DNA of 63,780 bases, the filler included, from Caldilineae bacterium (GTDB taxonomy: Bacteria > Chloroflexota > Anaerolineae > DTLA01): NCBI GenBank assembly GCA_037446815.1. It is 7 parts of 7 records of this genome, joined end to end, with 100 filler letters (N's around TTAATTAATTAA, not from the genome) between each part and the next. Parts side by side here need not be neighbours in the genome. Positions count along the whole stretch, not along the records: positions 28,019 to 37,200 come from JBBIHX010000119.1; 6 more parts are not named here. One strand, written 5' to 3'. Within the stretch, counting starts at the first letter, position 1; each line of letters starts with the position of its first letter. A model generated the notes under the pieces. That model did not search any database. It saw nothing but the letters and a program-made list of their open reading frames with translations, and had not been told where the DNA came from. Below are positions 9,278-58,382 of the stretch, piece by piece. The position numbers were made by a program, and so were the translations under genes.

Positions 9278-9377
9278 NNNNNNNNNNNNNNNNNNNNNNN
9301 NNNNNNNNNNNNNNNNNNNNNTTAATTAATTAANNNNNNNNNNNNNNNNNNNNNNNNNNNNNNNNNNNNNNNNNNNN
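9278..9377. other. Artificial contig linker
   Basis: N-run containing TTAATTAATTAA (stops in all six frames). Confidence 0.97.
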
Positions 9378-11028: not shown

Positions 11029-11241
11029 ATTCCCTCCTAAAGGTAAGTGTAGTTTGGAACTGTGGATAGCCTTCCCTTCCGTTGTTGCGGATAGCCTGCG
11101 GCTCGTATCGGGCCGCAAAGAGCGCAAAGTTTCCTTGGATTCCTCCTTAGGCTGATTTCTCTGCGTTCTCTGTGCCTCTGCGGTGAATTCCGCTGCCCTT
11201 TGCCAACAACACTCCAAGGAGATGAGCGGACTGTGCGAGTT

Positions 11242-12084: not shown

Positions 12085-12612
12085 ATGTTGTGCAAGGAAT
12101 ACGAATTGGAGGTCATCTCGCCACCCTGCGACCCGGGTTCGGAGCGCTGGAGCGCCTTCGCGCGGCTGCGCGAGGATATCAGCGACGTCATGCCCTATCT
12201 CAACACCGTCTGGAAGAACGCCATCTACGACCACGAGAACCACATCCTGACCGTGGTGCGCGGAGGCCGGCGCTACACCCTTCGCTCCCATGAGATCGCC
12301 ATCAGCAATCTGGAGGACCGCCAGGAGGCCCAGCGCATCGCCGAGCGCATCCTGGACGAGGTCAACCGAGTCTGGGACCGGCGGCGCGAGATCGTGCCCT
12401 CCTACGAGAAGCGGCATCAGCCCACCGTGATGGAAATCTACAAACTCCTGCCGGGCGGCAACTGCAAGCAGTGCGGCGACCCCACGTGTTTCGTATTCGC
12501 GAGCAAATTGGTGGCGGGCACGACAGACCTGACACGGTGCGTCCGCCTCTACGAAGCGGAATTCGCCGACAGGAGAGCGCGCCTGGAGGAAATCCTGGGC
12601 CTGGGCGAATGA
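12085..12612 (+). CDS. (Fe-S)-binding protein (COG4871-like, C-terminal FeS domain)
   Basis: LLPGGNCKQCGDPTCFVFA...C motif; GGAGG RBS. Confidence 0.85.
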   Translation: MLCKEYELEVISPPCDPGSERWSAFARLREDISDVMPYLNTVWKNAIYDHENHILTVVRGGRRYTLRSHEIAISNLEDRQEAQRIAERILDEVNRVWDRRREIVPSYEKRHQPTVMEIYKLLPGGNCKQCGDPTCFVFASKLVAGTTDLTRCVRLYEAEFADRRARLEEILGLGE

Positions 12613-12636
12613 GTCGCGCGATGCAGGAGGTAGGCG

Positions 12637-13530
12637 GTGTTTGAACGGGTGCTATTCCCCACAGACTTCTCCGCCTACGCAAACGCGGTGTTCGCGTGCC
12701 TGCCCGACCTGAAATCGGCGGGCATGCGCCATGTGCACTTGCTCGCCGTCATCGCCACGTCCCAGGTGCCGCTGGGCCACACGGCTTGGAACGAGGACTC
12801 GCTGGCCCGCGTCAAGTGGAGCATGGAGGAGCACCTGCACATCGCGTCCATGGCGCTGGAGGGGCAGGGCTTTTCCACCAGCACCGAGGTCGTGTACGGC
12901 AACCCCGCGCGGGAAATCGTGCGCGTTGCGCAAGAAGAACGGGTAGATATGATCGTCATGGGCGCGCAGGGCCAGAGCGCGTTCCAGGAAATCCTCCTGG
13001 GCAACACCGCCTTTGATGTCCTGCGCATGTCGCCCGTGCCTGTGCTTATTGAGAAGTTTGAGGTTGTGCGGGAACTGGGAAAGGTGGAGTGCCGGCGCGT
13101 GTGCGGCGCGACGTTTCAGCGGGTGCTCCACCCCACAGACTTCTCAGAGTGCGCGCGTGCTGCTTTCAACATCGTCAAGCGGCTCAAGGGCGCGGGAACC
13201 GAAGAGGTGCTCCTGGCGCATGTGCAGGACGAGCGCGTCATGCGCCGGCGCAGCCCTGAGCAACTGGAGGAGTTTGACCGCGAAGACGTGGCCCGCCTGG
13301 AGCGCATGGCCCGCGACCTGGCGCTCTACCGCCTGCCCGCCAAGGTCATCCTCAGGCACGGCCTGCCCCATGTGGAGACGCTTAAGGTGGCCGACGAAGA
13401 GGACGCCTCGCTCATCGTCTTGAGCGTATGCGGGCGCAACGTGATGAACGAAATCCTGGTGGGAAGCACGTTTGAGAAGATCGTGCGCACCAGCCGCAGG
13501 CCCGTATTGGCCGTCCATTGTGAGAGGTAA
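12637..13530 (+). CDS. Tandem-domain universal stress protein
   Basis: Two USP domains (FERVLFPTDFS...GAQG...LLGN; RVLHPTDFS...LVGS). Confidence 0.92.
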   Translation: MFERVLFPTDFSAYANAVFACLPDLKSAGMRHVHLLAVIATSQVPLGHTAWNEDSLARVKWSMEEHLHIASMALEGQGFSTSTEVVYGNPAREIVRVAQEERVDMIVMGAQGQSAFQEILLGNTAFDVLRMSPVPVLIEKFEVVRELGKVECRRVCGATFQRVLHPTDFSECARAAFNIVKRLKGAGTEEVLLAHVQDERVMRRRSPEQLEEFDREDVARLERMARDLALYRLPAKVILRHGLPHVETLKVADEEDASLIVLSVCGRNVMNEILVGSTFEKIVRTSRRPVLAVHCER

Positions 13531-13531
13531 A

Positions 13532-13987
13532 ATGGCAGACACGCAGCACCGCAAACGGGTACTGGTCATCTGCACCGGCAACTCGGCTCGGTCGCAGATG
13601 GCCGAAGCGCTGCTGCGACACCTGGGCGGGGATCGCCTGGAGGTCTTCAGCGCCGGTTCCGCCCCCGCGCCTGCCGTACACCCCCTCGCCGTGCGCGCCA
13701 TGGCCGAGATGGGCCTGGACATCTCCGCCCACCGCCCGAAACCGCTGGCCGACTTCCTCGGCCAACCCTTTGACTATGTCATCGCCGTCTGCAGCAAAGC
13801 GGCCGAGGCGTGCCCCTTCTTCCCAGGCCCGGCCGAGCGCATTCACTGGTTCTACGATGACCCCGCGGCCGTGGAGGGCAGCGAAGCCGAGCGCATGGCC
13901 GCCTTCCGCGCCGTCCGCGACGACCTGAAGGTTCGCATCGCCGAATGGCTGACATCCCTGCCGAGGCGAGCCGATGCCCCCCTATGA
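13532..13987 (+). CDS. arsC: Thioredoxin-coupled arsenate reductase (LMW-PTP fold)
   Basis: CTGNSARSQMAE P-loop, resolving pair VCSKAAEACP, DDPA. Confidence 0.88.
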   Translation: MADTQHRKRVLVICTGNSARSQMAEALLRHLGGDRLEVFSAGSAPAPAVHPLAVRAMAEMGLDISAHRPKPLADFLGQPFDYVIAVCSKAAEACPFFPGPAERIHWFYDDPAAVEGSEAERMAAFRAVRDDLKVRIAEWLTSLPRRADAPL

Positions 13988-15944: not shown

Positions 15945-16129
15945 CAGGCATGGGGACGCGGATGGGCCTCGCCCCTCCTGCAGGGACACCGCGGCGACTC
16001 CCCTGCTGAGGCGCGAAGGATCTCCTTCCCCAATCGTGTAGATTCGTGTTATCCGTGGATACACTCCAGCGCACGCCTCGCCTGCGGCCTTCGGCTGCCC
16101 CAATGACAGAAGCAGGGCGGCATGACAAT

Positions 16130-16487
16130 GATTCGGTTCCAAACTGTGTTGGTGAACCGTAGGCGCACTCTCTTCGCGTGTCATTGCGAGCGAAGCGAAG
16201 CCATCCCACGCTGCGGCGATTGCTTCGGGCGTTCCGCGCCCTCGCAATGACGGCCACCCGCAGACACTGGAACCGAATGCGGGGCGCCATCGCGTAGGGG
16301 CGACCGATCGGTCGCCCCTACTCTCCCCAATCCCCGCAATCCGTGCCATCCGTGGATGCACCCCAACCCTGTTCGCGTGGATTCGCGTTATTGACGGTTG
16401 CACTCCTCCGAAGTTGCCTCGTGTCGTGCGGCATTGTGCGCGACGCCAAGCCGCGTGAACTGCACCAACACTTTTTGGAACCGAATG
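16130..16487. mobile_element. Long-form MITE (358 bp) with 8-bp target-site duplication
   Basis: Termini GATTCGGTTCCAAACTGTGTTGG / CCAACACTTTTTGGAACCGAATG; ATGACAAT at 16122-16129 and 16488-16495; ~200 bp of interior near-identical to 46546-46902. Confidence 0.85.
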
Positions 16488-16636
16488 ATGACAATCGCGA
16501 TTTTGGTACAAGCGCGCATTCCGTAGTATTATCAATCGCACCAATCGGAGCCGACCGATGCGCAGGTGGGGTGGGAGTCGCCCGCGTGTATTGGCCCAGA
16601 TTCAACTCCCATGTGCGCCCGAGAGTGAGGTGAAGC

Positions 16637-18628: not shown

Positions 18629-18728
18629 NNNNNNNNNNNNNNNNNNNNNNNNNNNNNNNNNNNNNNNNNNNNTTAATTAATTAANNNNNNNNNNNNNNNN
18701 NNNNNNNNNNNNNNNNNNNNNNNNNNNN
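18629..18728. other. Artificial contig linker
   Basis: N-run with TTAATTAATTAA. Confidence 0.97.
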
Positions 18729-19076: not shown

Positions 19077-19150
19077 AGGCCAGTAGCTCAACTTGGCAGA
19101 GCATCGCTCTCCAAAAGCGAGGGTTGCGGGTTCAAGTCCTGCCTGGCCTG
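19077..19150 (+). tRNA. tRNA-Trp (CCA)
   Basis: Acceptor AGGCCAG/CTGGCCT, anticodon arm TCGCT-CTCCAAA-AGCGA, T-loop GGTTCAAGTCC; usual position between rpmG and secE; 3' CCA not encoded. Confidence 0.96.
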
Positions 19151-27918: not shown

Positions 27919-28018
27919 NNNNNNNNNNNNNNNNNNNNNNNNNNNNNNNNNNNNNNNNNNNNTTAATTAATTAANNNNNNNNNNNNNNNNNNNNNNNNNN
28001 NNNNNNNNNNNNNNNNNN
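27919..28018. other. Artificial contig linker
   Basis: N-run with TTAATTAATTAA. Confidence 0.97.
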
Positions 28019-28042
28019 CGGTGTCAAGCGAAATTCACCGCG

Positions 28043-28192
28043 GACTCGGTTGCAAAGTCTGTTGGTATTTGTCATTGCGAGGGCGCGGAGCGGCCGAAGC
28101 AATCCCTGGGGCGTGAGGTTGCTTCGCTTCGCTCGCAACGACACACGGGGAGAGTGTCCGTGCGTTTCACCAACACAAGATGAAACCGACTC
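28043..28192. mobile_element. Short-form MITE (150 bp) with 8-bp target-site duplication
   Basis: GACTCGGTTGCAAAGTCTGTTGG...CCAACACAAGATGAAACCGACTC flanked by TCACCGCG at 28035-28042 and 28193-28200. Confidence 0.85.
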
Positions 28193-28200
28193 TCACCGCG

Positions 28201-28380
28201 GACTCGGTTCCAAAGCCTGTTGGCATCTACTGTCATTCTGAGCGGCGGAGAGCGAAGAATCTTGGGATAACGTGCGACGCACCTCGGAGGTGCGTCGCAC
28301 GTAACCCTCTCCGCGCGGAGGTAAAGCCACCGCGCTAAAAAGCCCAAATTCCTCTGCGAACTCTGCGCCCCCGCGGTGCC
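28201..28380. repeat. Second MITE left end plus nested palindromic repeats
   Basis: GACTCGGTTCCAAAGCCTGTTGG, half CGTC module, hairpin ACGTGCGACGCACCTC-G-GAGGTGCGTCGCACGT (28270-28302; also 36987-37019). Confidence 0.7.
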
Positions 28381-37200: not shown

Positions 37201-37300
37201 NNNNNNNNNNNNNNNNNNNNNNNNNNNNNNNNNNNNNNNNNNNNTTAATTAATTAANNNNNNNNNNNNNNNNNNNNNNNNNNNNNNNNNNNNNNNNNNNN
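37201..37300. other. Artificial contig linker
   Basis: N-run with TTAATTAATTAA. Confidence 0.97.
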
Positions 37301-46390: not shown

Positions 46391-46490
46391 NNNNNNNNNN
46401 NNNNNNNNNNNNNNNNNNNNNNNNNNNNNNNNNNTTAATTAATTAANNNNNNNNNNNNNNNNNNNNNNNNNNNNNNNNNNNNNNNNNNNN
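46391..46490. other. Artificial contig linker
   Basis: N-run with TTAATTAATTAA. Confidence 0.97.
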
Positions 46491-46500
46491 CACATGGGAT

Positions 46501-46530
46501 ATTGTACACGCACTTGTGCGGATATGTCAA
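46501..46530 (-). promoter_or_regulatory. sigma70 promoter pointing off the contig end
   Basis: TTGACA-N18-TACAAT on minus strand, 15 bp from the MITE end at 46546. Confidence 0.65.
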
Positions 46531-46545
46531 CCGTGCCGCCTGCAT

Positions 46546-46902
46546 CAGTCGGTTTCATCTTGTGTTGGTGAAACGCATGGACACTCTCTCGTGTGTCATT
46601 GCGAGCGAAGCGAAGCAATCGCACGCCTCGGAGATTGCTTCGGGCGCTCCGCACCCTCGCAATGACGGCCACCCGCAGACGCTGGAACCGAATGCGGGGC
46701 GCCATCGCGTAGGGGCGACCGATCGGTCGCCCCTACTCTCCCCAATCCCCGCAATCCGTGCCATCCGTGGATGCACCCCAACCCTGTTCGCGTGGATTCG
46801 CGTTATTGACGGTTGCACTCCTCCGAAGTTGCCTCGTGTCGTGCGGCATTGTGCGCGACGCGAATTCGCATAGACTTGACCAACACAGTTTGGAACCGAG
46901 TC
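46546..46902. mobile_element. Long-form MITE (357 bp) with near-perfect 8-bp target-site duplication
   Basis: CAGTCGGTTTCATCTTGTGTTGG...CCAACACAGTTTGGAACCGAGTC; GCCTGCAT (46538-46545) and GCTTGCAT (46903-46910). Confidence 0.85.
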
Positions 46903-46954
46903 GCTTGCATGATTGCATTGGGGTTCACTGGCGAGCACCGCCGAGCAGCGTCTA

Positions 46955-55563: not shown

Positions 55564-55663
55564 NNNNNNNNNNNNNNNNNNNNNNNNNNNNNNNNNNNNN
55601 NNNNNNNTTAATTAATTAANNNNNNNNNNNNNNNNNNNNNNNNNNNNNNNNNNNNNNNNNNNN
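55564..55663. other. Artificial contig linker
   Basis: N-run with TTAATTAATTAA. Confidence 0.97.
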
Positions 55664-58231: not shown

Positions 58232-58382
58232 GATTCGGTTCCAAAGTCTGTTGGCACCTACTGTCATTCTGAGCGGCGAAGCCGCGAAGAATCTCGCTGA
58301 CCGAGATGCTTCGCCTTCGGCTCAGCATGACAGAGTGGGGAGGCGGCGCGCGGGACAGACCAACACAAAATGAAACCGACTC
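58232..58382. mobile_element. Short-form MITE (151 bp) with the alternative hairpin cargo
   Basis: GATTCGGTTCCAAAGTCTGTTGG...CCAACACAAAATGAAACCGACTC enclosing CTGTCATTCTGAGC...GCTCAGCATGACAG; no convincing TSD. Confidence 0.8.

Follow-up and report, generated by a model that had tools for sequence, protein, structure and literature searches.

The short repeats of this draft genome, which belongs to an uncultured Anaerolineae bacterium, are in all likelihood true transposed units (we put the probability at about 0.88). They are non-autonomous MITEs of about 150 bp, with further forms of 172–175 bp and about 358 bp, which are positioned with respect to promoters and duplicate 8 bp of their target. 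This reading draws on the termini of the elements and their 8-bp duplication, on an empty site, on a distance to promoters that is fixed, and on relatives found elsewhere that are autonomous and whose transposase has the DDE triad.

An earlier sequence-only reading of the DNA studied here had claimed DDE-type transposition with a strong site preference, rather than a spread of the HUH/RAYT type. The claim of DDE-type transposition is supported by variable 8-bp duplications throughout the genome, by an empty site that has a single octamer and by relatives that combine the same termini with a D-D-E triad. The strong site preference is also borne out, as a preference for a position 15–16 nt upstream of −35 boxes of the sigma-70 type.

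Genome and window

The assembly has 3.19 Mb in 265 contigs, with 65.6% G+C, 93.6% completeness and 2.9% contamination. The window, that is, the whole stretch of DNA that was analysed, is 63,780 bases long and consists of seven whole contigs (C116–C121 and C133) chained by artificial linkers (Table 1); it also contains one 100-N gap. Since the linkers join unrelated contigs, parts that are adjacent in the window are not so in the genome.

Several element ends are cut at the ends of contigs, which shows that the MITE family breaks the assembly. Genome-wide, 135 of the 255 unpaired element ends lie within 200 nt of a contig end. Contig C119 starts 24 nt before the 28043 copy, whose left flanking DNA resumes on contig C264.

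Termini and duplications across the genome

The termini are about 23 nt long, and the elements include two subfamilies, type A and type B. A search that tolerates up to two mismatches finds 687 termini in the genome (436 without mismatch, 146 with a single one and 105 with two), while a stricter terminus pattern occurs 557 times and its reversed control never. Adjacent plus and minus termini form 216 pairs, of which 172 are 148–152 bp long (125 of exactly 150 bp and 38 of 151 bp) and 22 are 172–175 bp long. The genome contains about 300 copies of the element, about 200 of which are complete. The mean identity to the consensus is 92.8% for 102 oriented copies of type A, and 95.0% for 16 copies of type B.

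Every offset and every length was scanned for direct repeats beside the paired termini, and the sole register that works is a length of 8 starting three bases outside TCGG. Among the 212 testable pairs, the two octamers are identical in 86, differ at one position in 43, at two positions in 24 and at three or more in 59, so that 129 pairs match with at most one mismatch and 153 with at most two. Shuffled pairing (200 random re-pairings) gives an expectation of 0.46 exact pairs, 0.98 pairs with at most one mismatch and 3.2 with at most two. Many of the pairs whose octamers match poorly are shifted by one base, lie within stacked arrays or have degenerate ends.

Two features of MITEs are thus present, namely a short, multicopy unit without coding capacity that ends in inverted repeats and a duplication whose length is fixed and whose sequence varies.

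Copies in the window

The window has 18 occurrences of the terminus pattern, where 0.31 would be expected. Three complete copies had been described as flanked by flush 8-bp direct repeats, and direct reading of the sequence agrees with this description at every coordinate, two of the duplications being exact and one matching at 7 of 8 positions. In all three copies, the repeats directly abut inverted termini that read GAN-TCGGTT...AACCGA-NTC. One more complete copy, the fourth of the window, has a duplication that is decayed or absent. The positions are collected in Table 1.

Table 1. Elements, duplications, promoter boxes, cut ends and linkers in the window, and examples of lone core modules in a sister genome.
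Feature	Position	Strand	Remark
Cut element ends, similar to that of contig C118	191-213, 9400-9422, 37333-37355, 63661-63780
Artificial linkers (44 N, TTAATTAATTAA, 44 N)	9278-9377, 18629-18728, 27919-28018, 37201-37300, 46391-46490, 55564-55663
Left duplication ATGACAAT	16122..16129	.	read directly
358-bp composite element	16130..16487	+	type-A unit, degenerate inner end at 16257-16279, then about 200 bp with the outer right terminus
Right duplication ATGACAAT	16488..16495	.	followed by 7 nt, then the promoter
Promoter of the 16130 copy	16503-16508 (TTGGTA), 16527-16532 (TATTAT)		18-nt spacer
Element end cut at the end of contig C118	27864..27918	+	terminus scan
−35 box TTGACA (TGTCAA on the top strand)	28022..28027	-	adjoins the 28043 copy
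Left duplication TCACCGCG	28035..28042	.	read directly
Complete 150-bp type-A MITE	28043..28192	+	inverted termini of about 23 nt, palindromic core
Right duplication TCACCGCG	28193..28200	.	doubles as spacer to the next element
Solo left half of a type-B element	28201..28262	+	departs from the family after about 62 nt
−10 box TACAAT of the 46546-copy promoter	46501-46506		18-nt spacer from the −35 box
−35 box TTGACA	46525..46530	-	15 nt from the tip of the 46546 copy
Left duplication GCCTGCAT	46538..46545	.	read directly
357-bp composite element	46546..46902	+	like 16130-16487
Right duplication GCTTGCAT	46903..46910	.	7/8 match to GCCTGCAT
Fourth complete copy, 151 bp	58232..58382	+	poor duplication, GCCCCGCC versus CACCCACC
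Lone core modules (examples, among many others)	G004:C86:45230-45693, G004:C110:7646-8384, G004:C22:117469-117790

The 150-bp element of contig C119 folds, as DNA, into one long hairpin (−33.5 kcal/mol, z −3.08). The longer copies are composites, made of a type-A unit whose inner end is degenerate, then the octamer CGGGGCGC, then about 200 bp with a good outer end; a further composite of about 358 bp is found outside the window, at C172:24-381. Since the three copies of the composite carry different duplications, it transposes as one unit.

Landing site

Outward from the tip of an element, one reads the 8-nt duplication, seven more nucleotides, and then TTGAC. Of 559 element ends, 64 have a TTGAC that starts at offset 15 and 11 have one at offset 16, and nearly all the other offsets have between 0 and 5. 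When the promoter side of each element is picked solely by the presence of TT at offsets 15–16, the picked sides give a TTG(A/C)C(A) logo at positions 15–20, a 17-nt spacer and a TATAAT-like box at positions 38–43. This TT is present on at least one side of 132 of the 194 elements (the background is 3.2% per position) and on neither side of 62. With a simple two-box promoter score, 165 of the 191 good calls fall at offsets 14–17.

The TTGACA reported 15 nt from the tip of the 28043 copy is indeed read there directly, on the minus strand, and the window copies fit the general pattern, with TTGACA, 17 nt and TATGAT for the 28043 copy, TTGGTA, 18 nt and TATTAT for the 16130 copy, and TTGACA, 18 nt and TACAAT for the 46546 copy. 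The promoter of the 28043 copy points leftwards, out of contig C119; it is completed on contig C264, where TATGAT is preceded by TGG.

Both orientations occur: in the clear cases, one end type faces the promoter 29 times and the other 22 times. The tip of the element mimics the target, in that seven bases are followed by TTCCAA, TTGCAA or TTTCAT, and at 65 ends the neighbour, at the standard spacing, is another element. The presence of an open frame downstream is not discriminating (85/95 versus 161/189), because long open frames are everywhere at 65.6% G+C.

Empty site

We compared contig C61, which holds four complete copies, with four public runs (X1–X4), in the form of assembled contigs rather than raw reads. 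A contig of X1 (2419 nt, depth 10, 65 differences) comes from a strain that is about 2.7% diverged. It aligns to positions 11099–12178 of C61 and then straight to 12337–13674. The 158 bp that are skipped (C61:12179-12336) correspond to the 150-bp element at 12186–12335 plus one CGCCGCCC octamer. The prediction that a site without an element should carry a single octamer is thus verified at one of the four C61 sites, in this assembled contig of X1; the other three sites are bridged by no contig, and X2–X4 likewise give no bridging contig.

The copy at 16130 is absent from all four genomes of the same genus, in which the adjoining promoter is conserved and the bases just upstream are too diverged for an octamer to be read.

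Search for the transposase

The genome itself gives no candidate: PF00872 has no match in it. A search for full-length elements, with termini 300–8000 bp apart and matching octamers, returned only eight elements of 309–364 bp. Two solo ends with unusual interiors, on contigs C41 and C47, were considered as parts of a full-length element and rejected, since they border ordinary genes.

In the four other genomes of the genus, the stricter pattern finds 34, 38, 11 and 4 termini, compared to 557 here. We examined 12 termini of G001 and G002 as possible ends of an autonomous element, with 3 kb of inward flank, and all of them turned out to belong to MITEs of about 100 bp with another core. A 3.1-kb interval between two termini of G002 contains ordinary genes and no insertion sequence. 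G001 and G002 each have, once, an IS256-type element (L032:1225-2700 and L028:1330-2700, respectively), which is absent from the present genome; the ends of these elements are quite different, and their genes were rejected as partners on that ground. An IS6/IS26-type partner was also considered, in view of the 8-bp duplications and of a likeness of the termini. It was discarded, as PF13610 (DDE_Tnp_IS240) has no match in the genome and the partner found is of the Mutator type.

That candidate partner came out of a scan of 185,579 species genomes with a pattern for one of the terminus types, in which one position was set against the common MITE interiors; 4 of 140 copies of the present genome pass this filter. 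The scan returned 7 loci in four groups of Chloroflexota. One of them, L055, is an element of 1541 bp that has both terminus types, matches 20 of the 20 bases of the scan pattern and contains an ORF of 434 amino acids. The L055 protein has an N-terminal zinc-binding motif. It matches PF00872 with 23.9 bits, narrowly above the cut-off of 21, and its best NCBIfam matches are ISH6 (47.4 bits, for a cut-off of 240) and IS256 (32.7 bits, for a cut-off of 150). In an alignment of this protein with three high-scoring IS256-type proteins, D176, D239, E359 and H263 are invariant, and a Q-x-C-x-x-H stretch is aligned as well. The models of ISLre2 and ISKra4 are absent from the NCBIfam matches of the protein at E-values up to 1, and BLASTP detects no similarity between it and an ISKra4-type protein (E = 18). 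Judged from its sequence, the transposase would belong to an unclassified, Mutator-type DDE family, which scores below the cut-off of every NCBIfam family.

Relatives of the L055 protein, with 51–59% identity, were found in 22 out of 401 genomes sampled from the class, and at least 440 more are found among 602 candidate stretches from metagenomes, where they are common in sediment and in the subsurface. Full-length insertion sequences of 1.5 kb with the same ends exist in other Chloroflexota and in metagenomes: L055 and L059 are such partners from other genera, both termini are found 1.48–1.70 kb apart in 70 of 80 metagenome loci, and 117 of 140 metagenome tips read GAC, the tip being G on the top strand and C on the other. 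Perfect 8-bp duplications flank L059, L085 and a small element (MITE) in L054. Among the metagenome copies, the duplication is perfect in 11 of 63 and the flanks differ at four or more positions in 49 of 63, which may come from the chimeric assembly of a multi-copy element. L055-type relatives are found in none of the five genomes of the genus, this one included, and a tblastn search of the present genome for this family gives 2.8 as the best E-value. As a driver is assembled neither in this genome nor in the genus, we infer it from other genera.

Proposed mechanism and the two registers

In the mechanism that we propose, a transposase of the L055-type family would act on the termini of the MITE, and the element would be joined to a target whose two strands are cut 8 bp apart, so that repair would produce the 8-bp duplication. 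The target would be picked by its position, so that the tip of the element lies 15–16 nt upstream of a sigma-70 type −35 box, in either orientation; this supposes a step in which the promoter is recognised in some manner. IS256-type elements are known to move by a copy-out/paste-in route, and the elements described here may well follow the same route.

The copies found outside the genus (L054–L088 and L100–L179) mostly land closer to the promoter. Their TTG peak is at offsets 3–7, with a mode at 5: over 130 ends, TTG is found 14 times at offset 5, 8 times at offset 3 and 7 times at offset 7, and 10 of 15 good promoter calls are at offsets 4–6, where the duplicated octamer reaches into the start of the −35 box (TTG). 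Among the metagenome copies, 6 of 24 with a good promoter call have it at offset 13–16. In a quick tree of 80 transposases, four of these six are in one group of 11 rows (support 90); the clustering of the offset label is weak, since shuffling gives an equally low value 28 times out of 500. It thus looks as if the family had two landing registers, separated by about ten bases, or one helical turn, with this genus in the far one. Because the register differs between this genus and the relatives, we have only moderate confidence that this exact transposase family moved the copies here.

A broader scenario is conceivable, and we regard it as doubtful for now: a third Mutator-like lineage, nearest to ISH6 and IS256 and outside the two published promoter-seeking ones, might have gained sigma-70 targeting, with two discrete registers at about 5 and about 15 nt, and produced a burst to about 300 miniature copies here. 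The spacing of one helical turn would then suggest that the promoter is recognised from one face of the helix, possibly via promoter-bound RNA polymerase. If it were so, each copy would displace the DNA upstream of promoter position −43, and a sizeable share of the promoters of the cell would have lost or changed their upstream control region.

Stacked copies

At 28201, the left end of a second element starts directly after the second TCACCGCG, as the sequence-only reading had indicated; a terminus scan of the window finds no right terminus for it. The suggestion that two insertions had occurred at the same nucleotide is supported as to the two insertions at one point, and it is the preference for a position relative to the promoter, not the nucleotide itself, that accounts for them. 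The same spot can be hit again because the promoter and the neighbouring octamer survive the insertion. The element at 28043 belongs to the type-A subfamily and the one at 28201 to type B, so that neither is a duplicate of the other; the half-element at 28201 is probably an older insertion at the same promoter.

This arrangement is not restricted to the window. There are 14 complete stacked pairs in the genome, with 5–8 nt between partners, and in three of them, on contigs C3, C55 and C103, the same octamer is found three times. A shared octamer in stacked copies is what one would expect if a second hit were guided by the promoter to the same eight bases.

Alternative explanations

The same observations can be given other explanations, and the one that deserves most attention concerns the enzyme. 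The copies could have been moved by a different transposase with similar termini, for instance of the ISKra4 or ISLre2 type, in which case the ISH6/IS256-like family would not be the driver. The landing offset of 15–16 found here is the one published for the ISKra4 and ISLre2 families (PMC3942029), while the family that shares the termini lands mostly at offset 3–7, and the genus has no assembled driver. On the contrary, the ISKra4 model has no match in any of the five genomes of the genus, the ISKra4-type loci of other members of the class do not have these termini, and it is the ISH6/IS256-like family that has both terminus types, with, as described above, a quarter of the well-called metagenome copies (6/24) in the far register. 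A search with PF06782 (ISLre2) is blank, but it is blank in every control genome too and is therefore uninformative. All in all, we consider a different transposase unlikely. It is also improbable, and more clearly so, that the end at 28201, and the stacks in general, result from unequal recombination or from mis-assembly at contig edges rather than from two insertions. The proximity of the 28043 copy to the start of its contig (24 nt), the frequency of unpaired ends within 200 nt of contig ends (135/255) and an array on contig C4, whose near-identical units with 7- and 8-nt spacers resemble a tandem duplication, would fit with such artefacts; however, the partners in the 28043/28201 stack belong to different subfamilies, the stacks with three identical octamers are located inside contigs, and stacking with an exactly shared octamer is what a promoter-anchored target predicts.

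Insertion at random, with a distance to promoters that merely reflects selective survival, is highly improbable. An enrichment in intergenic regions is expected anyway, because copies inside genes would be lost, but selection cannot be expected to act with the precision of a single nucleotide that is seen in the 64 TTGAC starts at offset 15, where nearly every other offset has 0–5. As for a spread of REP-like palindromes by a HUH (RAYT) enzyme, it can hardly be credited. The core of the element is indeed a palindromic module, which also exists on its own in sister genomes, in arrays with a spacing of about 80 bp; yet variable 8-bp duplications flush with inverted termini are not expected of REP spread, the empty site has a single octamer, and no Y1 gene is found in the genome (PF01797 is blank here, and the control is positive in 6 of 14 genomes). 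The rejection of HUH/RAYT-type spread in the sequence-only reading is thus upheld, and we retain DDE-type transposition of promoter-positioned MITEs.

Comparison with known systems

Prokaryotic Mutator-like elements have inverted repeats of 18–39 bp that end in C and duplications of 8–9 bp, according to PMC3942029. The termini of about 23 nt, the terminal C and the 8-bp repeats found here agree with this description of the p-MULT group (Guerillot et al. 2014; PMC3942029). The DDE domain that can be aligned with Transposase_mut is found in the protein of the relatives, not in a protein of this genome.

The same paper states that TnGBS/ISLre2 and the ISKra4 group insert 15–17 bp upstream of the −35 box of sigma-A promoters, and that both orientations occur if the two inverted repeats hardly differ; it connects promoter targeting with a signature motif located between the N1 and N2 domains (PMC3942029). 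The likeness with TnGBS/ISLre2 (p-MULT 3) consists of the Mutator DDE class, the duplications of 8–9 bp and the offset of 15–17 bp (PMC3942029); unlike TnGBS/ISLre2, the elements described here are 150-bp non-coding derivatives, occur in both orientations and have a host among Chloroflexota, not Firmicutes. The ISKra4 group (p-MULT 4), whose presence in Chloroflexi is mentioned in the same paper, is similar in that it inserts upstream of promoters in both orientations (PMC3942029). In contrast with both groups, the transposase that shares the termini matches neither the ISLre2 nor the ISKra4 model, and ISH6 and IS256 are its best matches.

Regarding IS256 and ISH6 (p-MULT 1 and 2), the likeness lies in these best model matches, in the D-D-E triad and in the 8-bp duplications. 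The differences are that the scores are far under the family cut-offs and that the elements here seek promoters, whereas PMC3942029 attributes no promoter preference to IS256 and an AT-rich target to ISH6. Promoter targeting as such is already known (PMC3942029); what differs here is the miniature form and the lineage of the transposase.

Our literature search returned nothing on MITEs that target promoters, nor on those of Anaerolineae. Classical bacterial MITEs, such as the Correia elements of Neisseria, are small and non-coding, have inverted repeats and duplications, are present in many copies and are moved in trans. In contrast to these, the target of the elements described here is set by the distance to a promoter and not by a short target sequence.

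A fixed landing position marks promoters genome-wide in an uncultured organism, and thus provides a free promoter map. Insertion may also sever promoters from upstream activator or UP-element sites, and is a possible source of regulatory change.

Other repeats associated with the elements

The palindromic core module (window 16179–16251) stands alone in the sister genomes G003 and G004, with dozens of matches at 86–93% identity. These lone modules are often arranged head to tail with a spacing of about 80 bp, without transposon termini (examples in Table 1). It seems that the MITE captured a separate repeat as its core.

In Rfam, no family matches the elements; the only match in the window is a tRNA gene at 19077–19150.

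Last, motifs of the ATCCGTGGAT / ATTCGCGT kind are present near elements, at window positions 16030–16070 and 16320–16400, and G001 and G002 also have them in their orthologous spacers. They may be another repeat family.
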